This document shows positions 62-27,900 of a stretch of DNA of 32,937 bases, piece after piece. This DNA is from Atractiella rhizophila. Lineage: Eukaryota. Below the pieces are notes generated by a model, which searched no databases, had not been told where the DNA came from, and saw only the letters and a program-made list of their open reading frames with translations. The translations under genes and the position numbers were made by a program. Numbering within the stretch: the stretch's first letter is position 1; each line of letters starts with the position of its first letter. The stretch is from assembly GCA_021432655.1 (NCBI GenBank), contig MU271225.1, positions 102,568 to 135,504 of the forward strand. The letters run 5' to 3'.

Positions 62-3000
62 GACACCAACTCGACGTTGGCTCTGAGTTCCCTCCACCTT
101 CTCTCCCTGTAATGTCCACTGGACGAGGATGACGAGTTCGTCCAATTCTCAGCTCAACAGCTCAACACAGCGGGGATTGGCGGCGGGGCCGGTATCTCGT
201 CTTCGTCAAGCTTTGGTTCGAGACCAGAAAGCAACACGAGGCATTCCCTTCACTGATGGTCGAACGGTTACGCTACCTCAATAAAGTTGGGGCAACTATT
301 GTAACGATCCTGATTGAAGTGGGCGAGCTGGAGGAATATGAAGAGGATAACCGGGACCTGGACTTTGTGCCCGAGGAGGAAGAGGAAGATGGAGTTGGAG
401 CTGGAGCTATGGAGGAAGAAGAAGACGGCAGAGAGATGAATCAAGCAACGGCGGATGCGATGAAGGAGAGAAGAAAGGAAGATGGAACCCAGAAGGGAAA
501 GACAAGAGCCCAGAAGAAGAAGGAGCAGAAAAAGAAGAAGAAACGAAAGGTGCCAGGAGCGGTGCGAGTAGGTGTCAACCATTCTTTTTTGACCGTCCGA
601 CTAATAGCAAGTTGCAATAGGAAACAACTGATGATGACGAGCAGCAAATGGGGTTCGGTTCAGAATCCGGGAGAAAGGTGCGTACCTGATGCTTAGCTAC
701 TTCCTTGTTCACCCTGACAAGTTACTCAGAGAGCTTGCAATAACGAACCTCGCGGCAAGGCGATGTGCAAGTTCTTCTACCATCATGTTGAAGATCATAC
801 TGCCGTTCCGAAAGGAGCATTCGGAACTCGCCCTGTCGTTCCTAGCGACCGTATCTTTCAATGCCGCCGATGCAGCCTCTACTTTTGCCAGACGAGCGAA
901 AGTAAATACAACTACGACGCCTTGATCAATCATCTGCAGAACAAGCATGGACAATATGTCACAAAAGCCCTCCAACGACTCGCAAATACTCCGGCCAGCG
1001 AGGACCTGAATGACGCAGACATCATATATGCAAGAAAGGAACTGACGACTCCAGAATACAAGTCGTCGCACAGGGATTCGCCGTCTGAGGATGAGGATGT
1101 GCCAGCTCCGGGTAGTATTCAAGCATGGATGAGGAATCATTCGATTGCAAAGGGGTCGTCCTTTGAAAGAAATGGCAATGAGGTTTGTTTCGTTCGCTAT
1201 TGGCAAAGCATGGGACTTATAGATTATATTACAGAAGGTAGATCCTGAAAGGCTCAAATACCTCCTCATGCGTTGGGTTTCGGTCAGCATGCAGCCTTTT
1301 ATGGAGGTTGAATGCCAGGAGTTGAGGGATCTGCTGAGCTATGTCCACAGTTCCCGACTGGAGATTCCCTCTTCAACAACGATCCGACGTGCAACTTCAG
1401 ATTATTCTGACAACCTTGGGCACAAACCCATCAAATACTATGAGGTACATTTATTTTATTTTGTCACACTCGCATTGACCCATGACTTTTATAGTCCCTG
1501 GAATGCAAATTCGCTATTTCCCTTGATCTTTGGACCACCAGTATTAATTCGAGTTTCCTCGCCATCTGTGGCCATCCAGCTGATTCCAACTGGAATCTTA
1601 ATACCGATTTGTTGGATTTCGTTGAGGTGCATGGAGAGCACAGCGGGAAAAAGCTTGCCAAGTTGGTTTACGATGTTCTCACACGGTTGAGGATTTTGGA
1701 AAAGATACATATTTGCTCTATAAGAAGTGGTGTCACAGTACTTACCTGAACGGAGCCTAGATTTCTGTGATTGTTTCGGACAACGCAAGCTCCAACGACA
1801 CGATGATGGAAGAATTAGAGCTGCTGTTTGCCAAGGATGGTATACCCTTCCCAGCAGCCGAACGCAAAGGAAAATGTCTTCCGCATATTGTCCATCTCGC
1901 CGTCATCGAACTCCTCAATTCAATTGGCGCATGGCCCAAAGTGAAGGATGGCGGCTCTTCCTCAACTGTGGCAGCTACAGATCCCACTCCTCTCAGTGCA
2001 ACCTCAACTAGGGCACCCAGCTCTTGTCACACTGGAGGATGAGGCGCACGAACCATATCAAAGCACGCTGGAGAACATCACTGCTCCTTCTGATCAGGCT
2101 GGGGACCTTGAGCAGCGTGTTGGTGGTAGCGGGGAGAGAGATGGGGATGCTCTCGGTTGTGAGAGCAATGCTGACGTTGGCACTGCCATTCAAAGGGTAC
2201 ACATTTATCTTGCTGTTCTATATCTTGAATATAGGCCAGAAGCTGATATCTTGAGCACCAGCTGCGAACCATTGTGAAATGCACTAAGTCGTCACCTCAA
2301 AAGAAAGATTGGTGGCTTTGTTGCATTGATACAGCGAGGCAGGATCTGGACGAAAAGGAGAAGCTCTTGCTCCTTGATGTTCAGACACGATGGTCTTCGA
2401 CATGTTTCATGCTGAAGCGAGCGCTGGCATTTAGGCAAGCAGTGGACAACTTCTCGGCAGTTCAAACAAAGGATCTCAAAGGTGCATGCCTATCCGAAGA
2501 TGACTGGGCTGCAATTGAACTCGTTACAACGTGGTTGGAGGAGTTTGCTGATGTAACCGCTCTCATGTCCAGCACTTCCTGTGTTACGGTCAGTAGTGTT
2601 GTCCTGCTTTTCCTCCAGCTCTTCGAGAAGTTGGAGGATGTGGTCGCTACTCTGCCTTTCACAGCTCCGCCAGTTGTCATGAACGGTTTGATCAAGGCTC
2701 ACGAAAAGTTAGCAAAATATTTTGCCAAAACTGATGATTATCCATGGTACTACTGGGCAATTTGTAAGTGTTTTGCTTATGCACTTGGTTAGTGAACTGA
2801 ATACTTCCTGTAGTGTTGGATCCCCGGATGGGACCTGCAATCTTTGAAAACCTGACTATGGACTCGATCCGCGGACCCTCGAACAAGCCAAGTCAAGCCT
2901 GAAATTCAAGTACAATCGGGAATATGCACGCAATCCTCCCCAAGTTCCTCCAGCTCCCTCCCCATCCGCTGCTCCTCCAGCTGTCGGTGTGCCAGAGCCG

Positions 3001-3489
3001 ACCACAGCAGCCGATAAGTTAAATGCACGAATTTTCTCCAGTGTACGGAAAACCACCGCTCTTTCACAGTTACATCCTTTGGAACGGTACTGGAACCACG
3101 TCACCAGCAAGGAAGGAGAGTCTGACGATTGTGCTGCTAATGCGGAGTCGAATGTTTTACTTTGGTGGAAGAATCAAGGTCAGAATGGTCGATTTGGCAC
3201 ACTGGCCGCACTTGCTCAAGATGTACTCAGTATTCCGGGTGTGTGCTCACTGCTGCCTTTCCTGCTCTATTTCACACTTAATTCCTGTGCTATAGCTTCC
3301 TCCGTCGCCGTTGAACGTGTGTTTTCATCTGGACGGGATGTTATCTCCTTTCGTGACACCTCCCTGAAAGCAGAAACAGTTCACAAATTGATGCTCCTCA
3401 GGGCGTGGTGGAGATATGACGGAAGGATGAAAGGAGAATTGGAGTGGCTTTTCCGTATGCCTCAAGACGGACCGATTGTTATTGATTGA
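62..3489 (+). pseudogene. hAT-family transposase, multi-exon, probably defective
   Basis: Motifs in order: BED-like finger FQCRRC...LINHLQNKH (763-950); SLDLWT (~1519-1536, D1); SDNASSND (~1776-1800, D2); CLPHIVHL (CxxH); DVQTRWSST; dimerisation domain LLWWK...LAALAQDVLSIP/ASSVAVERVFSSG (E). GT-AG introns at about 570-608, 678-729, 1183-1233, 1445-1494, 2198-2240, 2764-2813 and 3239-3295. Lesions: in-frame TGA near 129, apparent donor loss (AAG|ATACAT ~1705) and a frame change at ~1950-2040. The 5' limit is uncertain. Confidence 0.9.
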
Positions 3490-3580
3490 AGAACTTCAGT
3501 GAAGTGTCATGTCACTGATGGGATAACTGATTATGTTTTTGATCATTATTACTGAACCTGGTTCCCTCCCTCCCCATCAA

Positions 3581-3744
3581 ACCGTGTAAGCCCGTGGGCA
3601 AGCCGTTTTAGCCAACTGTACCCCGTCCCGTTCCCGTCCTCGACAAGGAAAGAATCCTGCAGACGGGACAAACGGGACAGGGTGTAACCGTCCCGTCCCC
3701 GTTTCGCCCAAAAAATCAACGGGTCGGCAGGGTGTCGAGCCCTA
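3581..3744. repeat. hAT subterminal repeat array plus terminal inverted repeat
   Basis: Many CCCGT/ACGGG copies in both orientations (CCCCGTCCCGTTCCCGTCC, GACGGGACAAACGGGAC, CCGTCCCGTCCCCGTTT) directly before GTCGAGCCCTA. Confidence 0.8.
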
Positions 3745-4184
3745 CTTGCGGGTGCTATGCTTCAATGAGATGCCGGAAGTTGCGATGAAATCAACGCGTA
3801 AAGCGGCACGTGTTGCTAATCGTAGTCCATCCTCCTCCGCCTTTTTCTTCCTGGCTCGAGCACGAATGGAGGGATATGGCGATGAAGAGTTCCTAGTGGA
3901 TCTCAGGCTGTCATGGAGAGGGATAGAGGGATGAGATGGGATGTCGAACTAGGGTGCATTGAGCTGGATCTCATGGAAAGGACAAATAGGAGGATGCTCG
4001 ATAAGAATTGGGAGGGATTCATATGGTGATACCGGTGCACAGAGTAGCTGAAGAAAGGTCTGCTTCTGTTTTCACTGCGATTGTTGTCAGAAATTCTGAC
4101 ACGCTCCTCTCTTCTGGTGCAGAAATGCATGCATCAATTCGAAACATTATATGCACTACATTTTCGTTGAGACAAGAGAACGAC

Positions 4185-4674
4185 GACAGCTCCATCCATC
4201 CACCTTCCCCTCTAGTCGATCCTCTGTGCCGCATTCGAGTTAGCCGCTCCATTCACCCGTCCCCCTCGATCTTCCTCCGGCTTCCCTATTTCTCTCCTTC
4301 GAGCTCCTTCCCCACATTGTACGCCCGACTCCAGCGCCGCACCGACTCTTAGAGACGTCTTCAGTCGCCTTTCTCCTCCACACGCCACATCTTTCCCTCA
4401 AGCAAGTCAGCGACAACACAGAGCACTGCATTATATCCACGTGTGGCTAGAGGCCAGACAGGGTAAGGAGGTGGCGGAGAAACTGTCGAGAGCTGGAAGA
4501 AGACGGAGGAGGATGTGGTCACGGTTTGATGGTGTCAATAAGAATGCAGTCGAATTCCTTCGCTTGTGGCGGAGGTAAAGCTGGATGAAGGCCTTAGAAG
4601 GGGTCATGAGATTAGGAGATTTTGTGTAGGAGTGCAATGAATAATATGCTGTCATGGGAACCTGGAGTCGGAAA
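4185..4674 (+). pseudogene. Hsp104/ClpB N-terminal relic, copy A
   Basis: Frameshifted remnants QLHP-IHL, HIVR-PA, LKQVS, FDGVNKNAVE, GKAG/KLD, ILCRSAMNN and EPGVGN are collinear with the Hsp104 N-domain through the NBD1 Walker A motif. The copy stops abruptly at GGAAA (4674). Confidence 0.75.
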
Positions 4675-4677
4675 CAT

Positions 4678-6465
4678 CAGCACTTTCCTGGGCAACGTCT
4701 ATGGTGCTATAAGCCCTATCATAGCTCATAGGCATTTTGTCACCTAGGCTCTATGGTAGACCCTCTATAGTGCCATAGGAAGGGCCATCCTATGCGCCGA
4801 ATCTGCGGTGCCTTGATGTTCCGACAACGACGGTCTTGTCGTCTTAGCTGCTGTTCCATTCTGAAGCATCGCGTCGTAAGCGATGAGATCGTAGCTGTCA
4901 GAGGGTCGGAGAAGGTGCTCTCGTCCAAGTGGTGTCGCTTCGGCCATTTCCTCCTTTGCCTTCTTCAACTCCTGCTGTAAGTTGGTTACAAGATCCTCAT
5001 CGGCAGATACAGCTTCCTCAAGGTCTCCAATGATGTCCAGCTCGTTGTAATCTACGGTATTAATATAAATAGCTTGCTAGATCATCAAGAAATTGGAAAA
5101 AACAAACCTTCAATCTCCTCGAAGGTTTGCGTCTCCAACTCGTCTTGTCTTCCACCTTTTCTCCGTTGAAATTCTTTCCCTTATCCTTTCTCTCTCTTGT
5201 TGTAAGTGGTCCATCGCTTGATGACGACCAATTGCTTCAGCTTGGAGACTGTAAGAGGATTGCGAGCTCGAGTATGAATGCGACTGAGAACAGAAAAGGT
5301 ACTTTCAACAACCCCAACGTGTGGAACCATGCTGAAGATGCGAATGGCGACGGAAATGAGTGGATATTGCGATGGAGGAAGGGCCAATTCCTCCAAATAC
5401 TTCAGGGCATTAAGGGAGGTTTCCGCAAACTTCCCCTCAAAGTTATGATACTCGTCAACATTGTCACAAAGAAGGGCGGAGGCTTTGCTGGAAAGCTTCC
5501 AGCGCTCCGCAAGTTGAAGTAAGAAGCATTTGACATCGGTGAGGTTGCGAGAGTTCGCTACGCGTCGGGAGACGGCGATTCCACGGCACATTGGATGAAG
5601 GTAAAGGGCGACGAAAAGGAGGTCGGAATCGATGGTGTGGAACCGGTTCTTGAAACACGAAACTGCATACTCGACGAATAAGTTTTCCCAGCCGATATCG
5701 GGGTCTTCCTCTTGCTCCAAATCCATTTGATCGAAGTGCTTTACAAGACGAAGCAGCTCAAGCGCAACGTCAGCTAATGTGCAGTTGGACCTCTCCAGCT
5801 TTCCAATCGTATCAACTACAGGACCGACAATACGGAGAAGGAGCTTGTTCTCTGGGAAGAAGGAGATACGACGCAGTGAAGTGAGGACATCGGCATTGAT
5901 ACCCGTTCCCTTGCGATCTGTTGCCTCTGAATGCATGCTAATCTTTCCAAAAGCAGACCAAATACCAACATTTACATTAGTGGATCTGTGAGTAAGTGAA
6001 AAGATAGACATCATATTCGTGACCAATAAGAGCACGGAGGAGATGTCCAATATAGTACCATCTTGTTGCGACTTCACTTCTCAAGCCACGGGTAACATTC
6101 TCAAGCTTGCGTATGTCGCCTAATCTGGCTTTCCAAATATGAGAAGTTGTAAAAAAGCGAATAATAGCAGAATTTTTTTTAATAAGTGTGGAAGCTTCAA
6201 CAAAACTACAAATATCACGGATCAAAAGAGCGAAGTGATGCAGAGAACATGGCCCAATAAGCAATGAAGGATGTTCTTTCTCAAGATCTGCCCGTAACTT
6301 TACCATTGTAGAAGGTGAATCCGTAAACAGAGAAGAAACAGCGTCCCAACTAACTCCAGCTCTAACAATTGATTCATTAACAAACTGTTGCAGACAGGAA
6401 GCAGTATGACGGACATCACTGAGATCTTGGAGCTCGAGGATAATGTTAGGGCTGACACTATGTAC
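4678..6465 (-). mobile_element. Second hAT transposon (DUF659-type), 5'-truncated
   Basis: Transposase remnant on the minus strand. At its 3' end is a CTATRG/CATAG-rich subterminal tract (4699-4795) and a candidate TIR starting CAGCACTTTCC at 4678, right where repeat copy A breaks off. Confidence 0.7.
4765..6460 (-). pseudogene. hAT transposase fragment (DUF659 region, catalytic core, dimerisation domain, acidic tail)
   Basis: Minus-strand translation: LELQDLSDVRHTA...LFTDSPSTMVK...PCSLHHFALLIRDI (CxxH)...SEVATRWY...VALYLHP...AIRIFSMVPHVGVVESTFS...RARNPL. Probable introns near 5970-6010 and 5057-5107. The N-terminus and first catalytic Asp are absent. Confidence 0.85.
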
Positions 6466-6486
6466 GGTCGCCGATAGGCGATGCGT

Positions 6487-6563
6487 CTGTAGTGGAGGTA
6501 AACCTAAGAGAATAGTATGGCATGAGAAGACTAACCTGTAGTGGAGGTAAACCTAAGAGAATA
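6487..6563. repeat. Short direct duplication (~27 bp, two copies) at the hAT truncation point
   Basis: CTGTAGTGGAGGTAAACCTAAGAGAATA at ~6487 and again at ~6536. Confidence 0.9.
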
Positions 6564-6916
6564 CTCTGAGGTCACCACCACTACATCTTGATGTATATAT
6601 ACATAAGTAAAGGCACTGCCATAAACTGTAACATACGTTGCTTGAAACGTGTAAGATAGCTAGATCAGGAAAGTAATAAAGGGAATACTCGGAAATAAGA
6701 TATACTGGGCAGTACTAGTGAGAAAGGACAATAAGGCGAAAATGGAGCCAGTGCAGACCGGCGAAATGTAGAAGGTTTGCTGAGCAGCGATTCGTGTGAG
6801 AAATGGGAAAGCGGCGAACAGCGCAGACATGAGCGAAGCGGCGATAGGTAGGCACATCATCTCATGATACGGTAGAGTGGGTCACATGACCTCGGATGGT
6901 GCATTTCGGTAATGCG

Positions 6917-7766
6917 CCTTTCTCTCAAGCGAGTCAGCGACAACACAGAGCACTGCATGATCTCCAAGTGTGGCTAGAGGCCAGAGGTAGTAAGGAGGCA
7001 GTGGAGAAGTTTCTAAAGCTGGATGAAGACGGCGGAGGATGGGTCATGGTTTGATGGTGTCAATAAGAATGCAGTCGAATTCCTTCGCTGGTGGCGCAGG
7101 TAAAGCTGGATGTGACCTTAGAAGGGCTGGTTAGGATTTTGTGTAGGAGTGCAATGAATAATCTGCTGTCATGGGAACCTGGAATCGGAAAGACTACTGT
7201 GGTGGAGTGTCTGGCACAGAGAGACACCTGCCTCCTTTCTTTCTTTACGATGGTATTTTATGTTCTCCCATTCAGAAGGTTGGATTGATAATTGCCTACA
7301 TATGCAGACGAAATATAGCAGCCACCGCTGTGGACCATCCCTCCTCTCCAATTCTCCCCTTCATCCTCTCCAAAAGCATCCAGCATCCCCCATTCTTTTG
7401 CATCTCCAAGTCCAGCAGCTTTATCAACAATCATTCCATTCAGGCTTGCAGAAGCGGACCTAGAATTCTCCAACGGCACCTGTTCCGTCGAAAAGGAACA
7501 GAAGCTTAAAAGGTGTGGGGGATTGGTGTATTGCATTATATCCTGCCCCTCAACCATTTAAAAGGTGTGCGGGATTGGTGTATTGCATTATATCCTGCCC
7601 CTCAACCATTTGATCCTAGCGGCGTGGATGGAGGTGAGGAGAAGGAAAAATAGGGTGGAAGAGGTGATGAATGAGATGAAGGAGTTGGGGGTTGGGAGGG
7701 ACATGTAGAAGAAGTCACCAGAGGAGGGTTTGAATTCGAAGTTCTGAGCTGAGCGTGAATGAGTTC
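6917..7766 (+). repeat. Mosaic repeat copy B: Hsp104 relic (6917-7225) plus downstream segment shared with copy C
   Basis: Closely similar to 4395-4674. Encodes RILCRSAMNNLLSWEPGIGKTTVVECLAQR (cf. ClpB/Hsp104 [27 protein letters not shown]). 7225-7766 aligns by eye to 13672-14120. Confidence 0.85.
7506..7611. repeat. 52-bp tandem duplication
   Basis: TTAAAAGGTGTG(G/C)GGGATTGGTGTATTGCATTATATCCTGCCCCTCAACCAT starts at 7506 and 7558, with one mismatch. Confidence 0.95.
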
Positions 7767-8145
7767 ATCTCCAATGCGCTAAAGGCGGAACAAATGGCCA
7801 GCTTTGGACTTGACTGGACTTATGAGCAGCTTCTTCTTTTGCTTTCTCCTGTAGATCATATTATTCACTGTCCAAAGGACTTCCTCTCAGCGACAGCCCT
7901 TTATTGTATATTTTTTCAATGGGTTAGTTAACCATTACTTGACCGTCAGGCTGCCTTAGTGGTATCCTCCCAACTTGTAATCTAAGCATTTGCCTGGGTA
8001 GCGAAATGAGTGCACAAGCCCCCCTCGCGACCTCTTTCACGTCCACGTCCACCTCCAATCATGAGCTCCTCAGAGCGATGTGAGAGTCCAGCGTCTGATC
8101 CAGTAGCTCCAGAGGTGGAGCCTGAATCAGACTGCGCCTTCTACA

Positions 8146-9297
8146 CTATTCCCCTCCCTCCCCAGGCTCCCAAATGCCTGACTTCCAGCTCGTTTTGTGC
8201 TTTTCCATCGTACTCCTCGCAATCACAATCTCCTCCTCGCTCCACTCTCCAAAGAATAAACGAACCTGGAGACACCACCCTATCCCCTTTCCGTCAACCC
8301 GATCCTCCTTCTCAATCCCCCTCACCCGCCAATCCCCAAAGAACCAGCGGATGAAGTCTGGGAAGTCGAACGAGTACACTACACAGTACCGGAGTGTTAT
8401 CCAGTGTATCTGCTTTGCATTTGTGAGGGTGCTGAAGAACTCGCGGGAAACGAGGTTTGACATTTCTTCACCCCTGTCAAGGATCAGCTTGGTGAGATGT
8501 CTGAGGTGTGATAAGTCGAACGGAGAGGGTAGGATGGAGGTCTTTCCATTGCCGGAGAAGGGGGCGAGGATGACTGTCAGATGTTCCAGAAGAGGCGGCA
8601 GAGGGTCATCTGAGATGGAGGAAGGGAGTGGACACATATTCCAGAGTTTGAGGTGCTTGATGGTGCATGGGAGGGAGAGCGATAGGAGAGGCGGGTACTC
8701 GTAAAGGCTCAGGTATTCGAGATGAGAAGATAAGTGAAGGCCTGCTGAGGCTGAAGCGGGAGAGTCCTCCACGTCGTGAACACTGAACCATCTGATCCTG
8801 TCACCCATCCTCCGCATAAAGTTCTCGATTTCCTCCTTCCTCCACTTTCTTGAACCACTTCCAAACATGACATCATCCACCCGTTTCAAGCCTTCGATTG
8901 CATTCAACACAATCTTCACCTCCTCTTCATTCCAAAATGCCTCCATCCAGACCTTCGTGACATTCGGCGAGCCTGCGATGAGCTCTTTCCCTTGCTCAAC
9001 ACTGATGCCTTTGTCAAATTCCAGGACTTCCCACAGATGTCCAGCACCCGGATAGCGTTTCAACCGCTCATACTTTTCCACCACATCATCAGGTTCGTCC
9101 CAATAAGGCGGCGAAACTTCCCTCCAGAGCTTGCAGACGTCAGAGAGTGTGGAAGCATCGTTGGAGAAACTGAATATGAGAGAGAGGAGCTCGACAGGCA
9201 ACCGTGCAATGGAGCATGGATTAACCTCTAGAGGTGGGACAGAGAGTTGGATGACACTAGCACCGTGGCAAAGGCCAGCTGTTTGCTCCTCCGCCAT
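8146..9297 (-). CDS. F-box domain protein with LRR/RNI-like C-terminus, intronless, 383 aa
   Basis: Uninterrupted ORF. F-box signature SIARLPVELLSLIFSF...LSDVCKLWREVS, followed by LRR-like units (LEYLSL, IKHLKL, LEHLTV, LRHLTKLIL). Confidence 0.88.
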   Translation of the reverse strand: MAEEQTAGLCHGASVIQLSVPPLEVNPCSIARLPVELLSLIFSFSNDASTLSDVCKLWREVSPPYWDEPDDVVEKYERLKRYPGAGHLWEVLEFDKGISVEQGKELIAGSPNVTKVWMEAFWNEEEVKIVLNAIEGLKRVDDVMFGSGSRKWRKEEIENFMRRMGDRIRWFSVHDVEDSPASASAGLHLSSHLEYLSLYEYPPLLSLSLPCTIKHLKLWNMCPLPSSISDDPLPPLLEHLTVILAPFSGNGKTSILPSPFDLSHLRHLTKLILDRGEEMSNLVSREFFSTLTNAKQIHWITLRYCVVYSFDFPDFIRWFFGDWRVRGIEKEDRVDGKGIGWCLQVRLFFGEWSEEEIVIARSTMEKHKTSWKSGIWEPGEGGE

Positions 9298-9833
9298 TGT
9301 TTGAGAAGAGGCAGCAGACTAGAACCCACAACCCATGTTAAATCAGACGAAGAACGCCGAAGTTGGAGATGAAATCATGCCTGGATGGCGTCATCAGCAG
9401 GGGTTACCCTCCTCCTTACCCTCCTCATCTTGACGGGATCGAAACTGTGACGAAGCCTGATGAGAATGAGCCGACGTCCAAACTGTGAGCTGTGAGGCTG
9501 CCTTGACCAATAGTTTGTGGGATAATCAAGGCGAAAGGCAAGATCGATGTATCGTTTTGCAGTTGGGGGATTGAAGGACGTTGCCTGCTTTAATATGTGA
9601 TGTGGAGAACTCGGACTTCAGCAGGACGACGTCTGGTTCGTGTTGGGCATGGAGAAACGACCTTCTTTGATTAATGAACAAAGCGATTCAAGCAGAGCAA
9701 GCGGACTGACCTAGATTGGTCAAGTCGTTTAGTGGGTGGATGGGTAAGTCCGTACCTATTGTGAGAGCATGAGCTCTCTGGTTCACTCGGTCCCCCTCCA
9801 TTCTACACTTAGGGTTAGGGTCATGTTCTGGTT

Positions 9834-9927
9834 CCACAGCGATTTGACCACCATCCGCTGTGGACCAGGTAGGGAGTTCATTGCATTGTATGACAGCGAT
9901 TTGACCACCATCCGCTGTGGACCAGGT
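9834..9927. repeat. 35-bp direct repeat, period 57; first copy forms a hairpin
   Basis: ACAGCGATTTGACCACCATCCGCTGTGGACCAGGT at 9836 and 9893. CCACAGCG pairs with CGCTGTGG in the first copy. Confidence 0.9.
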
Positions 9928-10108
9928 CCAGCGCACACCTATATCCGGTTCAATCCAGAGAGGCACTGATTGAAGCCGCACTCGTTGCGCCGCGGAGAGA
10001 GCAGGTGGTGGGCTGGCGGAGGACAGGGAGGGAAGAGCCAGTTGATCCCTTGATGTACGAGTGTTCGGGAGAATGTTCAGATGACATGTTGGCCCTGATC
10101 AGGCCTGA

Positions 10109-10690
10109 ATGGAGGGAGCTCCAGGAGCTACTACACAGGTAAATTGCATATTGATTGATGTGTTGCTGTCAATGATCTTAAGAGCCAAACAAACAAAACA
10201 CATGGTAGCGGCCGCAACTCCGTCCACAAACAACTTGGCCAGTTTTGACCTGAGCGAAATGGGAAGAGATCCCGGTCCTGGGACATTTTATCGTAGCAGA
10301 GACAGAGATCGAGACTGGGGAGAGCGGAAAAAGGATCACCGTGAAAGTGAGGGGAGGGGAAGGGGGAAGTGTGAGAAGGACAGAATGGACCTGGAGATTC
10401 CATACAGACTGAGAACGGTAGTTCATGCGTATCAGTGTCGCGTGAACGTCAGTCACAGAGAGCGAGAGGGAAGGAGACGCTCTCGTTCTCGTTCCAGGGA
10501 GAAGCGGATAGAGAAGAGGAGGGAGATGCCCCGCTCCCCTTCTAGAGACAGAGACAGGAAGAGGAAAGGCTCCCGGTCTCCAGGTCTGTCTTTCCTCACC
10601 TTTCTGTTCAATGTATCCTCGTATTAAACCAAACGTGAACGCGCAGAAAGGCGCTCGCGCTCTTCCTCCCCCTCTTCCAGCTCACAGCTG
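10109..10690 (+). pseudogene. Arg/Ser/Asp-rich (RS-domain-like) gene fragment
   Basis: RSRDRDRD...RRRSRSRSREKR...RSPSRDRDRKRKGSRSP, with plausible introns (GTAAAT...TAAG 10139-10182; GTCTGT from ~10584). No folded domain recognised. Confidence 0.45.
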
Positions 10691-12510
10691 TCAGCCTATT
10701 TTTTTGGTGCTCCCCAACCCGCTCGCTTGCAAGCGGAGTACGTGGGATCGGACAAATGATGCTGCTGCTACACAAGTTGGAATCAAAATAATGCATATTC
10801 TTTGGAAAGGCAGGCTTCCATACCCACAGCCATAAATCACGGCTCGATACCCTTCCCGCGCTGTAAAGACCAGTAGAATAAATTGTCCAATGTCCCCTGC
10901 CGTCGTTCCCTTGTGGATGGGTGGTGTACTCGCAGATGACAAAAGGACAGATGAGGGAGTTGGGAGACTCGTAGTCGTTCTGGGGTGGATGTGACCCTTG
11001 AAGTGAGGAGAGCGCGCTAGCTCAAGCTTCGGCTTTGAGAGAAGTGTGCACGCAAGATATCAGAGCGCGAGTAGCATACGAATGACATCCAGTGAATTGA
11101 TCCTTCTTCACTTTCCCCTTTCTCCTCCTGCGCTTCGCCCCCAGCTACGTATCGCTACGGCTCTACATCTTCCATACTTTCGTCTTCCTCCTTGCACCCC
11201 TCATCCTCCTTCATTCACCTCTGCACCACGAACCGCGTCGGAAATTCTCCTTCCTCTTCCCTCTTCCATCTCTTAGGCAGCGAGCAAGAAGACCGTGAAG
11301 CATCACTGAAGCATTACTATTGCCTTGAGCCATAGGTCGGGCTTCCTTTCTCATGGGTCTTCGGACACATCTAACTCGGCTGTAGCAGCTACAGACGGGT
11401 AGTAAGGAGGAACTGGCGTGAGAAGGTTGGTAGTGCTGAGTGGCGCCGGGCTACCCAAAAATGTCCTTCCCCAAGCCGAAGGGATTCCGCCTGCGTGGAG
11501 CAGCAAGCTTGTTGCATCTGGGAGCATCGGACGGGTTTGGAGGGATCGGCATAGGTGCGCGCGGCTGCTGATACGTCTGCTTCTTCAGCTTGGACCTGTT
11601 GCGTATGTCGGATGGGATGAGTGGAGGGGGTCGCAGGTATTGCTACCAGTATGTCACAATACGGACGGTCAGGCTGAGTCAAGCCGCGGTCATCAATCTC
11701 CCTTGCTATCGGAAAGGAGGGCGTACAAACCACGGTTTCGTATTTGATCCTGTCGCCTTACCACAGATGTGAATACTCCGTGGCCAGCCAGCACTGCTGA
11801 CAAGGTAAGAGCCATCCCCCTTTGGGAAACACAGACAATGTCAACATCCTAAGTCTGCTGGTGAAGACAACAGAGCGTGAAAGTAAGGAGGACGTACCAC
11901 ATGGTCAATTAGCATAACCATCCGCTTCAATCTCCTCATCCTTCACAGACAGCCGCTCAATCGTTATCATAGCACATCACCCTCGCTGGGAGCCCTCGTT
12001 CAGCACGATGCTGCACCGACTCTCTCCCACCCAACTATCGTCTCAACTCTTTCCCTCCTCGGGACCATTCTTCAATCCTTCTTCACCCTCTCTTGCTTCA
12101 TCTTCTCCGACAGTGTACTCCCACATTCCATCCATTCTTCTCCCCCTGCTGCATTCCAGAATCTTGCCAGTGACCACTCGCACCGAACAAAGACATGAAA
12201 AAGTGAGGAAGCGTGCCCTTTACCGAATATCCCATGTGGTTTCTGCCAGTAGGCGACGGCAGCCGGAGAGATGACTGTCGAAGTGGAACGATGGACGCTC
12301 GACGCGTTCCACACCAGTTTGACGAAGCAGAGGGGCGGACGTGATTTGGGGCAGACAGGATGGTTGAGATGAGAGAGGTCGTCTGTGCCAATGGACAAAA
12401 AAGAACCCCTTTGAACGGTTATGTGATGCCTGCAGGCGAACGAGCAGAGAGACGTTACGTGGTGGGATGTTTTCCACGCCTCTCCACCATTGCTCTCGCT
12501 CCGGTCCTCA

Positions 12511-14120
12511 CCTTCTCCTCCTCGGGATGTGCACCTAGCTTGAAACAGATCCTCTACCTGGTGTCACGAACCCGCTTCGATCAACCCATCTCCCTCCTCA
12601 TCGTTCCTTCTCTTCCCTCTGCGGCATCCTCAAGCTTTCTACGGACTTCTCTAGCCGGTCTATCTAATGAATATTGAATAAAGCGAAGGAGGAAGGAGCG
12701 GAACGACGGGGATGATGCGGCATTTGCTCTTGTGCGACGCGAGTCGATATTCCGAAGGGCCTTAAAGACCTTTGCCGTATGTCGGTGGGTGGTGCGTCAA
12801 AGAAAGCGAAAGTGCAGGCGACGGCGACAGCGAAGTGAAAGAATGGGCGGAGATGAATTTGAGTGCAATATGGAGAGAGTGCTCGGTGGGGAGTAGGAGA
12901 GTGGTTTGTACTTGCGCGGGGGGGAGTGGTTTGGGATCCCGTGCCGGAGGTGGGAGGGATGAAGAGGAGCCATGGTTGTGAGGGACGAAGGGAATGCCTC
13001 GAGGGGAACACGTTGCGGTTAGGAGGGTCGACGAAGCGCATTGGGGGGGCGAATAGTGGACCTAGTTGAACAAAGTTGGAACCAAGGAAAGCAGAGGAAG
13101 GAGTGCCTGCTCACTCAAATTCCACCGTTTGGAAGTTCTCGCTCATGGACGGCGAGTTGAATGACGTAGTTGATCCTCCGCCACATCCGATCCCCGTCTC
13201 CCATCCCGCCTCGCCTCGACCTTCTTCTGACTTCCATCTTCTCCTTCGGGCTCCTTCCGGTACTCTACTCCTGAATCCAGCACCGCACACGTCTGCCGAC
13301 TACGAGGGGGATCTTCTGTTGCCGTTCTCCCCCGTACCTTCACTGTCACGCTCAAGCAAGTGAGCGAGCACACAGCGCACTCCAAGATGCCTATCTGTGG
13401 CTACGGCCAAAGGGAGTAAGGAGGCAGTGGAGAAAAGCTCAAATAGGTGGGAGTGAGGTGGAGAGTAAGCCAACAGAGGACGAGTTCCATTGCTCTCAAC
13501 AACCACTATGCTCTCGAATTGGCTCGCTTGCGGAGGGAAAGCTGGATGAGGTCTTAGAACAGATCGTAAGACTATGAGATTTTGAGTAGGAGGAAGAAGA
13601 ATATTACGCTCTCGTGGGATCCTGGAACGGGAAAGAATGCCGTGGTCACAAAGGTTCATCTATCGAGGTCAGACCTCGTTCCTCCCCTTTCTTTGCGATG
13701 GTATTAACGTTCTACTATTCAGATCGTTTGATTGCAGCAACTGCCTACAGATGCACGGAGTAGCAACGGCGCACACGCACTGGACTTACGCCGCTCTGTC
13801 TCTGATTCTCTCCTTCATCCTCTCCAAAAGAACGTCCAACATCCTCCGCTCTTTCATCTCTCCTAGTCCAGCTACCCCTTTACAAAAGAGAATCTGCAAT
13901 TCTCTCAAAGCACCTCTTCCATCTAAGATCACAGAAGCACATAGGCGAGGCAGAGCAGTGTATCGTATTATATCCCGCTAGTCTAGCTGCATGGCAGGAG
14001 GAGGGAGCAAGGAAGAATGGGTGGAGGAGACATTGAATGTGATGGAGTCGTCGAGGGTTGAGAGGGAGGTCAACGGAGGAGGGTTTGCCTTCGAACTCTG
14101 AACAGATTGTGAACGAGTTC
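12511..14120 (+). repeat. Mosaic repeat copy C (most diverged): unknown segment, Hsp104 relic (13172-13680), downstream segment
   Basis: GKLDEV, ILSRRKKN and DPGTGK remnants. The 5' part matches the backwards-read 17222-16205 and the 3' part matches 7225-7766. Confidence 0.8.
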
Positions 14121-14202
14121 TGCGAAGGGGAGGACAGTAGGTCTTCAGAAAGGATGACGAGATTAGCGGACTCATTCTATGTTGTGTAGAAACACGCAGA
14201 AA

Positions 14203-14227
14203 NNNNNNNNNNNNNNNNNNNNNNNNN
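14203..14227. other. Assembly gap, 25 N
   Basis: Run of exactly 25 n. Confidence 1.
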
Positions 14228-15538
14228 GTCAGAAACCGGCATTAAGACATTATTTCAACTTGTCGAGAGCTCACTATCGGTTACTGAGGGCCTTCATTCC
14301 ATAAGGTAGATACGTTCGTTGAATCAGTACACAAATAATTTAGTAAAATTTTTTATGCGGCTATGTATTAAGTATACCGACTTTCAAGGAGGTTTTCAAT
14401 CCTCTCCAATACGAGGTAAACGGTACTCAGACTGTAAACTCTCTTGTTGGTTAACGAAAGTTTAACGTACTATCGGGTATTTGACTCGCTATTGGTCAAC
14501 CGCGGTCGGGGACGAAAAGTTGAAAGCGGTACGTCGGAAACTGGCCTGTAAAGAGGTATAATATCGGTCCTTTCATAAGTCCTCAATCCTGTTCCTCTCC
14601 AAGTTGCTCTTTAAAAAGGCCTGTCAGTCTTTGCAAAGAAGCGGCATTTTACCAGTATTAGCCGTCACCCTCCTTACTTTTCTCCAGGTATCTCCCCTTT
14701 CGGTCACCCTTATCGAGGAACCAATTAGATGTAAAATGAACATTGGGTCTCTGAAATTTTATTCATGTCTTATCGTATGGAGAGACAGTTCCTGAGCCAA
14801 TTGTTAAAAGGATATAAGATTGTGAACCCGTCGTTTCTTATTAACGGGGAGGAGGGGTGTTATGAAAATAAAAAGAAGGTAAAGAGGTGACATAGTAACT
14901 GGCTAACTGAACAGGTGTAACAAAGGGTCAGGTGTTTCGGTCAAAAGGGAAAAATAAGGGTCGGAAGACAGCTCACACCCAGAGATCGTGGACAAACGTG
15001 TCACGGAAGTGCTGTCCCCCTAGCTTCTACAACCTCCTTTCGCGTCTGTACTGCTAACTTATTCCAGGTTACTAGACCATGAGACGACCCTCTTCCGCAC
15101 TTCCCACCCTGTCTCACCTACGCTACTCCTCCCCGCCCCGTGTTCTCTCGTCACCGGCACCTTCAACCACCTGTCTTCCACTCTTCGTTCGACTTTGTCT
15201 TTTATGACCCTCTATTACCAATCATGTTGTAAGTACGTTTCTCCTTTCCTTACTCTGTATTGTTCTCTCCGCGTGGAAAAGCGGCACGACGTCTTCGTGT
15301 GAGTGTCTAGTCTCTTATCTCCTACAGCCTCCTTCGATCCACCTACTCTTCTACCCCTTCCTTTCGCACCGACTACCCATCTACCTTCTTCCTCCTTTCC
15401 TGAACGTGTTGATGTGGTCAGGAAAGGAGGCGGAAACGAATCCCCAAACCCCCCAGGCAGGAAGAAGGAAGAAAAGGAGTAAGGTAAGTACGAAAGAAGA
15501 CTCTTGAGAAGAGAAGAAAGCTTCCTTCTAAACCGGTA
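14228..15538. pseudogene. 5' exons of the Dada-like transposase, readable only right-to-left without complementing (true + strand)
   Basis: Candidate ATG at 15538-15536. Introns at 15275-15206 (GTGCGC...CTAAC...CAG), 14779-14728 (GTATGC...TAG) and 14365-14309 (GTATCG...TAG). Peptide: CPEKFLVEPLLVLTPEYFPGYNMEKCPVKGC...GYRSVYGL...LKCQTHGKWSITSPNFW...YGIPYFRESLAITRELFNFITELRPKT. Some frameshifts are present. Confidence 0.85.
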
Positions 15539-15593
15539 CAAACACCGGAGCCTGCGCGTCGCGCGCGGCTGTACTGGTCAAAGGGGCGTCGTG

Positions 15594-15740
15594 TTTTGAC
15601 CAGCTGGTCAAAAGCCGTTTGATCAGCGGGGGTCCCCAAACGCGTTCGCCGGCCTCCGGCGTTCGCTTTTTACCAAAACGCGAAGTTAAAACTCTTTTAA
15701 ACGTTCGGTTTTTCGTCCAGTTTTGACCAGCTGGTCAAAA
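15594..15740. repeat. Two copies of a perfect 20-bp palindrome, 127 bp apart
   Basis: TTTTGACCAGCTGGTCAAAA at 15594-15613 and 15721-15740 (AAAACTGGTCGACCAGTTTT once the block is un-reversed). Confidence 0.95.
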
Positions 15741-15792
15741 TAGCGGCTGGTTGAGGCTGGGAACCCGCTGCCCCAGACGATTAACGCGGGGA

Positions 15793-16177
15793 GCGAGGCC
15801 TACTAGGGAACGCGGGGGGTTCCACCTTGGACTTCCGGGGAGCGTGTGCACTCGCCTTATGCTTACGGACTTTTTATAAATTTTACGCATTATTACTCGG
15901 AAACTTCCGAAGTATCCGTATTATGACCGTTTCTATTTAATTCCTTTCGTTCCTACCCCACCCCTTTTCCAGAAGCAACTCAAAAACTACTATATTTTCC
16001 CAGTTCTTGAACAAAGTCCACGAAAACTCCAATTTGTTTCGGAGACTTCACTACAGTTAACGTCTTTTACCACAGAACGAGCACGATCTTCAACCGCTTT
16101 TATCAATGTGCTGCGCGGTCACTTTGGACCCCCCGGACGTCCAAGGTGGAACCCCTCAGGTTGCTAGTAGGCCTCGC
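15793..16177. mobile_element. MITE-like element or subterminal fold-back: ~47-bp imperfect inverted repeats around an AT-rich non-coding core
   Basis: The reverse complement of 15793-15840 (CCCCGGAAGTCCAAGGTGGAACCCCCCGCGTTCCCTAGTAGGCCTCGC) matches 16131-16177 (CCCCGGACGTCCAAGGTGGAACCCCTCAGGTTGCTAGTAGGCCTCGC). No TSD identified. Confidence 0.65.
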
Positions 16178-16204
16178 CGTTTTCAAAAGAAACTGGGAGG
16201 GAGC

Positions 16205-17222
16205 AAGTAACGTGAGGATGTTTTTTAAGATTGGTGGGGAAGATTCCCGGTGTAGGTCGAAAGGGAAGCGGCGTCCGCTCCGTTAAGCTGACGTAAGAAT
16301 AACTGTCGTAGTTTCGGTAGGAGGGGGCAGAAGAAGGTCGAAAGCTGTTGGAGAGGCGACGGAGGAATGGCGGAGACCGGAGATCGGTGTCCACCCCTAG
16401 TGCGTCACGCGACACAAGAGCGACTGAGCGAACTCCCCTTTCCACTCCGCACATCTCGTCTTACCGCTGACTTCTGCGGGATTCTCAGCCATGACGCGAC
16501 CTCAGTCCGCATGTTACGCCCCTTCCTCGAGCTTCCTCTTCCTCTTCAGCCCTGCTCTTCGGCCTCCTTCTAGCTCCTCCTCCCCCACTTACCCCTCTAC
16601 TTACCTCGCCGATTGAGCTTACGCGGCGCCGCGTCTCCTAGTTATGCAGTAAGTTGAACGTCCGGTACTAGCTCCTGGCGCTTTGCCACCTTAGGTGGAG
16701 CAGCCGTCAGGACTGGCGTTGGACAAGGTGACGTCGGTAAAGACAGTAGGGGGAGGGTGCAGGTACCGAGGAGAAGTAGGGAGGGTGGAGGCCGTGCCCT
16801 AGGGTTTGGTGACAGGGGGCGCGCGTTCGTGTTTGACGAGAGGATCAGGAGTGGTTCGGTGGTAGAGAGAGGTATGACGTGAGTTTGAAGTAGAGGTGGG
16901 TAGGTCGAAGAGGCAGTGAAGGGGCAGCGGCAGAGGAAGTGAAAGCGAAAAAAACTACATAGTGGCGGACTGTATGGCGTCCCGGGGCAAGCTTATAGCT
17001 GAGCGCAACGTGTTCTCGTTTACGGCATAGGAGGGCAGCAAGGCGAGGAAGGAGGAAGCGAAATAAGTTGTAAGTAAACCATCTCGCCGATTTCGAGCAG
17101 TCCCCTACGGCGTCTCCTCCTATTCCTTCCCGCTCCTCCCTCTACCCCCAACCAACCAGCTTCAGCCAAAGCACTGTTCTTCATCTCCTAAACAAAGTTC
17201 GATACACGTGTAGGACTCTTCC
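16205..17222. repeat. Mosaic repeat copy D (in the reversed block), including Hsp104 relic 16640->16205
   Basis: Backwards reading gives HIVRL-PAQ, LKRVSE, DGFDAVNKNAVEL and EG-KLD, and matches 4218-4640 closely. It breaks off after GCAATGAA. Confidence 0.88.
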
Positions 17223-20073
17223 CCTATGTTGGCAAACTGGGAGAAGCGATTCAGCATGCGTAACTACTGTCTTTGCTTAGAAAAAACAACTTACACACTC
17301 TTTGTGTTTTGCAGAGCTACATTCGGAGCATGTCCAGCAGATTAAACGAGTTTGGCAACAGTACGCTATTAAAGAACAGATTTGTCACAAATGGCCTTCC
17401 GGCCCGTTCAAGCCAATCTTGAAGCAGTTCCCAGCTGTTCTATCCAGAGCTGCCGATCCAACTATAAAAGCTGATGTGATTAATCCCTCTCCATCATCTG
17501 ACCTCATCAAGACAATCTACGAACACTGGATAGAGTGTGAGCGTGGCCCAGAAAGCAACATGTATTTGAAGACCCTTACCGGTATGTATTTTGGCTTACC
17601 TTGGCCCTCTATCCTAATAAACCACCAGGTCTTTGTTAGGCCTCGATGCAACCCTCAATGTCGCCAAGAAGGCAAACATTTAGACTACCGTGAAGGAGAC
17701 TGGTAGTTGTCAAAAAGTACAAGTTACAAATATTTTTGGTGGAGGATTGTTGATGATGGTAAATGAGGACCGAGAACTTGTGGCATACATAAGTTATAAG
17801 GTTGCTGTCATCTGTAAATTCAAAGCCTAATGATAACAATCCAGGAATTTCTTGTTGGAAACTCACCGCTCGAGATGGGTCCACCACTTCAAGATTTTGC
17901 TCAACGTGCACGGCTCCTTGGAGTCGCCTTTGAAGGTAGCAGGCAGGCATGTGTTGACCTCTGCTGTCAATATAGGAACAGTATCCTTCTCTATGTGCCC
18001 GAACTCTGGATTGGTCAGGATCTAGCTCATCTCGAAATGTGTGTCTTTGAAACAATTCCTTATATCAATCCAGCACGAGCAGATTTCGTAGTGGCATTTC
18101 GAGAGGCAATCTTGAAGAAGAAGGCAGACTTGCACGGTGGGGTTGCTGAGTGTTATTCAGTTGAAAAAGCTTGGAGCGGCTTCCGAAAGTTGAAGACAAG
18201 TTCAAGAAGAATTCTGATCTTTGGAACAAGTGCTGTGCCACATTCGAGCTTCAAAAAGGTCACATTGCGAAGGGATGCCTTATTCCAAAGCATCAGCAAC
18301 TCCCATTTACAACATCAAATAATGAAAACTGGCATAATGCAGCTGGCGAGCTATTTTGTAGATCAGATTCTTCTCTTACAACTATTCTGAGTGTCCTTCC
18401 CGATATCTTCTTACGTAAAAAAGCTCCTTGTCAAAATTAAGAACCACTCCAGCCAGCTGACTCACCATCACGAGCATTTCGGAAGAAGGTTATTGAGGCT
18501 GGTACCCACCACATCTTTCTTGTGGATAGGAATCTTCGCCTGGAAGAAATCTTATACTCTTCAAGCCAGCCTAAACTGTTGGACATCTTTTCGAAGCATG
18601 AGTTTGGATTGGTCAAGTGTGAAAAGCAGTATGTTTTTGTACATGCTACTGGGAGTAGTACATTTATTGATATTCCATGAGTTTAGATTTACAGGAGTTG
18701 ACCTAGATTGCTATAAAGCGAAGTGAAAGGAGCTCCTCCAAACTCTCAAACCAGATGATATCGAACACCCCGAAGTGATTGTTATGGCTGTCATGAATGG
18801 AACGGTTGTTATGAATGGTGAGCTTCCTGTGGACTCTGAAGTTGAAATGGAGGTGTTTCCGAAGGCTGTAAGTCTTCTCTTCCCCAGTCTTCTCAACATG
18901 AGAATATATTCATATTGAGCTGTTATAGAAACCGGAGAACACTCCTTTACAACATTCTGCGATCAGTTCATCTTGCTTGCCAGAAAAGCGCATGGCGACC
19001 CAATTGGATAGTGAGGATGATGCCACTACTATGCTCGCAATCTCCTCCAAACACCCTCATCTAAATCGAGAACTTTTGGAGCCAGATATCAAGCCACCTC
19101 CGCTGCCTTCTTTTTGGAACTTTATAAAATCGAACCAGTCCCCATCTTCCACAAGTATGGATGTGGAAGCACAGCCACCACCAGTTCCTCTGCCTACGAA
19201 TGTCTACCAATCTCGAACGTCACAGACCTTTACTTCAGCAACAGGCACTTCGTTTGCAGATTATCAGGAGAAGAGTACAATTCAAATGTACTCTGATGCC
19301 TTCTGGAAGCTTGCAGCCTGCCGACTCCAGTTCAAAGCTACTTCTTCAATGACGGAGAAGCAGCTGAAGTTGTTTGCTGAGAAATATAATAACCCCCAGC
19401 TTATCTTGAACCCTGTGTATTCCAATGCAGAGAAGGGTGTTCTGAAAGACATAATCATTCGTGATGGTTTGGTGCTCAAAAACGGTTTATTTGCAATCGA
19501 GAAGGAGGTTGTTAGTCGTATTCAGAGAGTAGCCAGAGGAGACTGTGAGTTTGAACACTTTTATTGACAAGAAAAGGAATCTACTAATAGTGTTGAGCAG
19601 CCATCAAACCATTCTGGAAACTACAAACGACACTCCCTCCACCAGTGAAAGTGACATACATGAAGCCAACAAAGAAGGGCAACCTTGGAGCTGTAAAGAC
19701 TTGTGGTCGATGCAAGAAGCAAAAGGATGGGTATGGTGAGAAGAATACAAACAACCACAAGCGCGATGTCTGTGATGACAACTTTATGCATTGGTCCAAA
19801 GTTCCGTACCCACTGCCCAAGACCAACTTACGCAATGTCCCACTCTGCAAGAATATGTTGGGGAAGTGGAGTATAGACGAGAATGCAGTAAAGAAGTTTT
19901 TCACGGATATCAAGGATGGGAAAGTGCCAGATGTTGATCAATCGGTGGAGATGGTCAACATGCGAGTTTTTATGGCAATGACATGGGTAGAGGAAAAGAT
20001 GGACTGGGTTTTGACAAACGAAGGTTGCATATTGAAGCAGGGAAGAGAAAGTAGTGGTTCACTTAGTGAGTAG
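17223..20073 (+). pseudogene. Dada-like (DUF6729-type) DDE transposase, catalytic and C-terminal part
   Basis: LDATLNVAKK (D 17645), CVDLCCQ (D 17956), QDLAH (DxxH 18019-18030), GHIAKGCL, TTSNNENWH (E 18324) and a C-terminal CGRC...H....C finger (~19702-19773). Introns, stops (TAG ~17681) and frameshifts are present. The superfamily is assigned from recalled motif order. Confidence 0.7.
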
Positions 20074-20340
20074 TCAGATGCGAATGGATATCTTTTGTGA
20101 TTTTCAGTCTGGGACAAATAATGCACTAGCCTCCACTTTTGAAATTTTTATAAAGATCACGTCAACTATTCTAAATCAAAGGCAAATTTTGAGCCTTTAT
20201 TTGATCAATTACAGCTGCAGTTGCAAGAGGACTGGATGCACTGTTGCAGAGTCAGACAATGTAAATATAATGTGAGTTGATGCTCTGCTTTGTTAATATC
20301 CCCTCAATGCTAATAATCCTTATACATCGTGATAGCTAGC

Positions 20341-20650
20341 TCTCAGGCCTCGCATTCGATGTACTCACGCCTGAGATACGATGGATAATGGCGAAGCAAT
20401 GAGGAATTACGTTTTTTGATGTATATGAGATGCGTGTTTTGTTCTCCGCTTTTTTTAACGTTCGCTCGTTCTCAATACACATTATACGTCGTTGAAGCTA
20501 CATCTCAGGCCTCCCATTCGCGCTACTCACGTCTAAAATACGATAGATAATGGCGAAGCAATGTGGAATTGTATTTTTTGATGTATATGAGGTGTGTGTT
20601 TTGTCCTCCGCTTTCTTAATGTTCACTCATCGTTATTACATGTTATACAG
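20341..20650. repeat. Diverged tandem duplication, period 162 bp
   Basis: TCTCAGGCCTC...GATAATGGCGAAGCAATG...TTTTTTGATGTATATGAG starts at 20341 and 20503. The first unit opens with the hairpin TCTCAGGC/GCCTGAGA. Confidence 0.92.
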
Positions 20651-21217
20651 GGAAACAACAGCATCATATACGTTGCGTTCAAGCGACTTAACAGGAAAAC
20701 GCATTGGGTATTGATGTCGGAAGGTGCGATCATATTTCAAGTTTCGACTACCTATATCTTTATTTATTTATTTCAGAGACAGACACATTCCTTTTAATAG
20801 ACACTGGATTAGTCTAAATTATGTCCATGATGAATCATTAATCATTACTACATTTTGCATTCCATAATATTCGATGTCGACCACTTTTGTGTTTGCAGCC
20901 CGATGCGGCGCAAATCTCCGCGAAATTGAGCTCAAAACCCTTTTGAGCGCGAGGCCTAGGGCCGCCTGCGCAAACCCTCGGGGCGACCAGTTTGCCAAAG
21001 ATCTTACTTTCTCCCTCCTGCAGATTTCGAAGGCCGGCTAATCCACGGCTAATATCTAAGCCGACAATTGGTCCGTTCCGGCGGCCGGATTTCGACTGCG
21101 TTCTAGCGTTCTATCTGTCTCGAAGGCTTAAACTTCAGAATAAGCTCAATCGCAAAAGGCGACATCGAAGGAACTGTAACCTGTCTCCTCAACAACCCTG
21201 CAACAACAGCACCAGAT

Positions 21218-27202: not shown

Positions 27203-27900
27203 GACCGCGCACGTCCATCTCCCTCCACTGAATACCAGGACACAGCAACATCAAAGGCAACGAGCTAGCGGACGCAGCAGCTAACAGCGCAACGGATCCA
27301 GAAACTGCAACAGGCCACATCGTCATCCCGAGAAGCCCAGCCACACTCAAAGCGATCATCACAACAAATCGATTCACTCCCAAAGAGGCCTCTTCCCCCC
27401 CATCCGGCAAGCACCACCATTCTCTATCCCGTCGACTCTCCCCGGATCAAACCTTCGACATGCTGAAGGAAATGCCACGCGCCCAAGCATCAATCTTCGT
27501 CCAGCTACGCTCAGGCCACACCTCCATCAACAATTACCTCCACCGTATTGGGGCATCAGAAGAACCGTCATGCAACTTTTGCGGAATGAGGGACACAGTC
27601 ACCCACCTTTTTTTCGAATGTGAGGAACACGAGGACGAAAGGAAGAAACTTAGGAGCAGGCTGAGGAAGAAGGACATCAAATTCAGGTCTCTTAGCGACC
27701 TCCTAAGTGAACCTGAGGCTATGCAAGCAGTGTGGGAATTCATCAGGAAGAGCGGGAAGTTCAGCTTATGGATCAAAAGGGCTCAAAGGGTGTTGGATAG
27801 GAGGAAAGAAGAGAGGGAAAAGAGGGCGGAAAGTAGAGGGGAAGAGCAAGAGGAAAGAGAGGAGTGGGAAGACTAGGAAAACAAGTTATGTCTAATCTCA
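27203..27900 (+). mobile_element. 5'-truncated Tad1-like LINE (RNase H C-terminus plus CCHC finger)
   Basis: ISLH*IPGHSNIKGNELADAAA (RNase H WIPGH..GNE.AD with TGG>TGA at 27229), then QLRSGHTSINNYLHRIG...CNFCG...TVTHLFFEC. ORF ends at 27876. The 3' tail and TSD were not located. Confidence 0.9.

Follow-up and report, generated by a model that had tools for sequence, protein, structure and literature searches.

A 2998-nt block beside an assembly gap in Atractiella rhizophila is written back to front without complementing

Introduction

Why does a stretch of almost 3 kb next to an assembly gap resemble the sequence around it solely when its letters are read in reverse order and left uncomplemented? 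The question arises in a 32,937-nt stretch of Atractiella rhizophila DNA (contig MU271225.1 of assembly GCA_021432655.1, positions 102,568 to 135,504 of the forward strand), which was analysed over its full length and is referred to here as the window. An earlier note, made from the letters alone, had described positions 14228-17222 of the window as a mirror block and had attributed it to an orientation bug in contig extension. We approached the block through its nucleotide matches, its composition, the gene that it interrupts and the contigs of two public sequencing runs.

Results

The block occupies 14228-17225 (2998 nt) and matches the rest of the window solely when it is reversed without complementing. 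When 14228-17222 was reversed in this way and compared with the rest of the window by blastn, it aligned in five places: 12517-13042, its best partner (78.1% identity over 553 columns, E 1.7e-124), 4218-4641 (80.1%, E 8e-116), 6917-7158 (85.3%, E 5e-74), 13119-13559 (67%, E 1.4e-30) and 20910-20999 (79%, E 8e-15), the last being a 92-nt match that corresponds to 15612-15703 read backwards. As written, the block gave no match to the rest of the window on either strand (blastn, E ≤ 1e-3). The alignments that the earlier note had reported, of 17222 read down to 16205 against 12515-13600 and 4218-4640, were thereby recovered; its right border at 17222 was not. Comparison of the reversed whole window with the window itself returned this block as the only one, and because the resulting alignment extends to 17225 against 12514, the right border lies at 17225 rather than at 17222; with this border the best match covers 12514-13042, at E about 1e-123.

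Exact matches single out the same form. The 49-mer quoted earlier does stand at 12927-12975, and the exact match is 51 nt in full (12925-12975 against the block read from 16812 down to 16762), the longest for the reversed form; uninterrupted identity reaches no more than 12 nt with the written letters, 15 nt with the reverse complement and 13 nt with the complement. Inversions and inverted duplications share with this locus a block in altered orientation beside related copies. An inversion or inverted repeat was considered and rejected, the reverse complement having no blastn match and its longest exact match being those 15 nt.

The matches and the neighbouring gene together give the block an internal layout. 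Read backwards, its right-hand part (16205-17225) is a copy of a repeat, dispersed or tandem, with the order and orientation of 12514-13559, 4218-4641 and 6917-7158. The main partner of this reversed match is the repeat copy at 12514-14120 (plus strand), which belongs to the left-hand contig and is written correctly, and further matches fall in partial copies at 4218-4674 and 6917-7766 (both plus strand); once the block is flipped, all four copies of the repeat line up in one direction on a single strand. The left-hand part (14228-15050, ~820 nt), also read backwards, is the 5′ part of a gene and encodes the N-terminal ~237 residues of the protein family of P0001, P0005 and P0006 (below). The rest of this gene lies at 17226-20051 (plus strand), where the right-hand contig starts, and corresponds in several exons to residues 248-630 of P0001 and 99-726 of P0005. 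Between the two parts, the block middle (15051-16204, ~1.15 kb) finds its only paralogue in the window in the 92-nt match, and its reversal is evident from composition only. The true plus strand of the block runs from 17225 down to 14228, so that base 14228 abuts 17226. As written, the block adjoins on its left a run of exactly 25 N (14203-14227), an assembly gap, just as the earlier note had described it; this is the sole run of N in the window. Several copies of palindromic TTGACCAGCTGGTCAA-like motifs stand at 15560-15760 in the block middle; because reverse-complement palindromes survive plain reversal, these motifs genuinely belong to the true sequence.

Since only about one third of the block has paralogues within the window, we applied a test independent of them. 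It exploits the fact that the strand symmetry of real DNA does not extend to a plain backwards reading. Briefly, we fitted an order-3 Markov model to the two strands of the window minus the block and compared the log-likelihoods of the written and the reversed letters; 25 window segments of equal length, each excluded from its own training set, served as controls. Reversal was favoured for the block by +67.6 nats. Among the controls the written direction was favoured in 25/25 (mean −78.6, s.d. 14.3, maximum −48.7 nats), which places the block more than 10 s.d. away from them. At finer scale, reversal was favoured in all 8 of the 600-nt segments inside the block (+8.3 to +19.7 nats) and in 2 of the 96 outside it (+1.4 each), and with 300-nt segments the preference flips sign at both block borders. 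In composition the entire block resembles reversed DNA, the part that has no paralogues included. The content of open reading frames, a weak criterion, amounts to 1136 residues in frames of at least 70 aa as written versus 2017 when reversed.

All of 14228-17225 is genuine genomic sequence, set down back to front and uncomplemented. A chance or low-complexity resemblance could in principle produce a reversed match; no point was found in its support, and against it stand E-values down to 1e-124, an exact match of 51 nt versus 12-15 nt in the other three forms, a composition more than 10 s.d. from the controls and protein matches down to E 8e-97 (below). We consider its probability negligible.

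The protein evidence comes from the gene that the block interrupts. With the open reading frame at 17818-18390 as query, we retrieved 12 relatives, all hypothetical proteins of Atractiella rhizophila; the gene family is multi-copy and counts at least 12 such proteins. None of the 12 is identical to the window (0/12 at 100% identity), and no protein model of the locus itself was found. Against the block alone, none of the 12 homologues matches as written, and three match when it is reversed (residues 1-237 of P0001, E 8e-97), in agreement with the earlier claim that the backwards reading yields protein-like coding sequence. On the written letters of the window, the alignment of P0001 (630 aa) begins no earlier than residue 248, at position 17314; once the block is flipped, residues 1-248 form a single alignment over 16403-17257 that passes the join, and P0005 and P0006 likewise span the corrected join after the flip.

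The peptide at the join, ELRPKTD/VGKLGEAIQ (ELRPKTDVGKLGEAIQ; a slash marks the join here and below), is the same in P0001, P0005, P0006 and the flipped window. That flipping the block would give an in-frame join had been proposed for 17222/17223; the frame was right and the position was not. All three paralogues carry D where a join at 17222/17223 would give A-Y, which is found in none of the three, and the join is therefore at 17225/17226, with the residues T-D-V-G. The same position is given by the sequencing runs, the nucleotide alignment and the proteins. Flipping the block in place restores a gene that runs across 17225/17226.

This gene contains intron-like insertions, two within the block and one just past the join. 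The first of those in the block is a 57-nt candidate intron of the GT..AG type with 3 stops inside, and the second measures ~49 nt. Relative to the paralogues there are 3 frameshifts in the 0.82 kb of the block and 2-3 frame breaks in the 2.8 kb of untouched flank; since the untouched flank has frame breaks too, the scattered indels that the earlier note had pointed to in the block cannot be read as the mark of long-read errors. The gene copy may be a pseudogene or otherwise decayed, or the assembly may carry small indel errors at this place. The frame breaks of the flank lie near 18165-18210, 18641-18667 and 20016, and contigs of the sequencing runs differ from the window by 1-nt indels at 18165 and elsewhere.

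As to what the family encodes, Pfam gave no families for P0001, P0002, P0004 and P0005 and weak, unrelated matches only for P0003 and P0006, with no match to DUF6729 or Mutator in P0001-P0006. A language-model look-up in the Atlas pointed to DUF6729 / Mutator-like transposon proteins (score 0.89, to be read as a lead only; structural TM ≤ 0.21). The multi-copy gene is possibly transposon-derived.

Sequenced DNA at the corrected join was available from two public DNA runs, X1 and X2, which represent one sample and one study and were used as Logan contigs, not raw reads. No RNA run was listed alongside them. The share of window words present in the two DNA runs was small (0.20 and 0.17), and their contigs were aligned on window positions 11233-20217. 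In X1, one contig aligns on the window from 17226 and is preceded there by 30 loose letters, all of which (30/30) match 14228-14257 read backwards; X2 has two contigs that align from 17226, with a median of 170 loose letters, and 28 of 30 agree with the same reversed string. In the sequenced DNA, the base left of 17226 is thus the one written at 14228, followed leftwards by the block read backwards. With the block flipped in place, the corrected join at 17225/17226 reads CCAAAGACTG/ATGTTGGCAA. The earlier note had predicted that the right flank would be found attached to un-reversed sequence, a prediction borne out by both runs, in contigs that lie on a multi-copy flank.

Summed contig depth was 2206-15430 over the right flank (17226-20217) and 171-950 over the left flank (11233-14232). 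As written, the block had a depth of 0 in both runs in nine bins over 14233-16932, an absence of contig cover that carries no evidential weight, and the bin at 16933-17232 had depths of 164 and 127 in the two runs. The right flank being multi-copy, the contigs with loose ends may represent a paralogous copy rather than the exact locus. Paralogous copies do exist, since the X2 variant shows 2 differences; furthermore, many run contigs carry transitions relative to the window, so that some of them stem from paralogues or from another strain. These qualifications as to contigs, copy number and strain are immaterial as far as the orientation found in nature is concerned. Behind ~19737, one X2 contig departs from the window and continues as TAGGGTTAGGGTTAGGGTT, a telomere-like repeat, and at least one copy of the right-flank element family may lie at a chromosome end.

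These contigs bear directly on whether the block could be a true biological mirror copy, that is, a sequence present in the genome in reversed 5′→3′ order. No process of replication, repair, recombination or transposition is known to give a reversal without complementing, and nothing apart from the written string itself speaks for such a copy. Against it, the run contigs place un-reversed sequence directly beside 17226, that sequence completes a gene with a join equal, residue for residue, to that of three paralogues, and the borders of the block coincide with the gap and with the contig start. We regard a mirror copy as exceedingly improbable.

Natural mirror repeats of the H-DNA or triplex kind resemble the block in that their arms agree once one of them is reversed and left uncomplemented. 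They are short and homopurine-homopyrimidine, with adjacent arms and a small spacer. The block is unlike them in having a complex arm of 1 kb with 78-85% identity to partners ~1.2 to 12 kb away, and in containing the 5′ part of a gene as well. The complex 1-kb arm and the distant partners led us to reject an H-DNA type mirror repeat.

Discussion

Almost certainly, the block is the real sequence left of 17226, reversed without complementing through an assembly artefact, and no biological feature. The un-reversed run contigs and the paralogous proteins that cross the join lend support to the earlier proposal of an orientation bug in contig extension rather than biology. As the most likely course of events, we envisage that the contig starting at 17226 was extended leftwards into the scaffold gap, probably with long reads, that the gap would have been left unclosed because a repeat copy lay on both sides, and that a minimal gap of 25 N would have remained. 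When the extension was attached, just half of the reverse-complement operation would have been performed. Either an extension in plus-strand orientation was presumably reversed, or a consensus of the opposite strand was complemented and left unreversed; the two routes would give an identical string. A half-done reverse complement is a common scripting error, and the block has its form, being at once the true sequence reversed and the opposite strand complemented, and lying at the end of a contig, a place that calls for strand handling.

Alternatively, the reversal could have arisen after assembly through data handling (editing by hand, a script for submission or conversion, or the way in which the window was prepared), the original assembly being correct. 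Nothing specific favours this, and the relatives include no protein model of the locus (0/12 at 100% identity). An intact locus might have yielded a full-length model like the paralogues of 630-726 aa, and the lack of one is a weak point against later handling. The block starts exactly at the 25-N gap and ends exactly at the read-supported contig start; with its borders placed there, an operation on contig ends within an assembler or gap filler fits better than a later accident. We consider post-assembly handling very unlikely.

The software cause is one that we infer from the anatomy of the block, and PBJelly-type gap filling as the tool is close to an even call, if slightly under it. A gap of exactly 25 N is the size that PBJelly-type gap filling would leave behind after an extension, as the earlier note had pointed out. 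In its extended flanks and its overfilled or reduced gaps PBJelly offers a likeness to this locus, where a 2998-nt extension likewise adjoins a gap of exactly 25 N. According to the portions of the sources that were consulted, PBJelly defines a gap as at least 25 N and uses long reads to extend flanks into gaps that cannot be closed (English et al. 2012, PMC3504050), and its default minimum gap is 25 (PMC6240028). The consulted portion of the PBJelly paper makes no mention of an orientation error (PMC3504050), and a preprint on Armillaria, as far as its consulted part goes, concerns a different assembly route (10.1101/166231). Among the matches listed in our literature search, we found neither a published account of reversed but uncomplemented kilobase blocks in assemblies nor a published report on the Atractiella rhizophila genome assembly.

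The relevance of the block is to data hygiene, not to biology. Open reading frames, motifs, repeats and gene models read from 14228-17225 as written are meaningless, and the first ~247 residues seem to be missing from the gene that goes on at 17226. Ordinary similarity searches, which cover both strands, are blind to an error of this kind; cheap tests that expose it are the alignment of gap-adjacent sequence after plain reversal and the comparison of Markov likelihoods for the written and reversed letters, both of which can be used over whole assemblies. It is conceivable, though we hold it doubtful, that the reversal is systematic, one pipeline step writing backwards whatever it adds to a given kind of contig end. 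If so, many gap-adjacent mirror blocks would be expected in this assembly, and possibly in others from the same pipeline version, where genes would be truncated and spurious annotation seeded; a scan by composition or by reversed alignment would detect such blocks.

Elsewhere, the window is transposon-rich. A Pfam search of 16 open reading frames of the window returned hAT dimerisation, F-box-like and zf-RVT matches only, all outside the block. The frames concerned lie at 2848-3489 (plus strand), 5181-6080 (minus strand), 8146-9318 (minus strand) and 27232-27876 (plus strand) and account for two hAT C-terminal dimerisation matches, one F-box-like match and one zf-RVT match, the zf-RVT match falling under the Pfam cut-off. 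Downstream of the interrupted gene, two overlapping direct repeat units of ~176 nt stand at 20312-20487 and 20474-20648, with 80% identity to each other.
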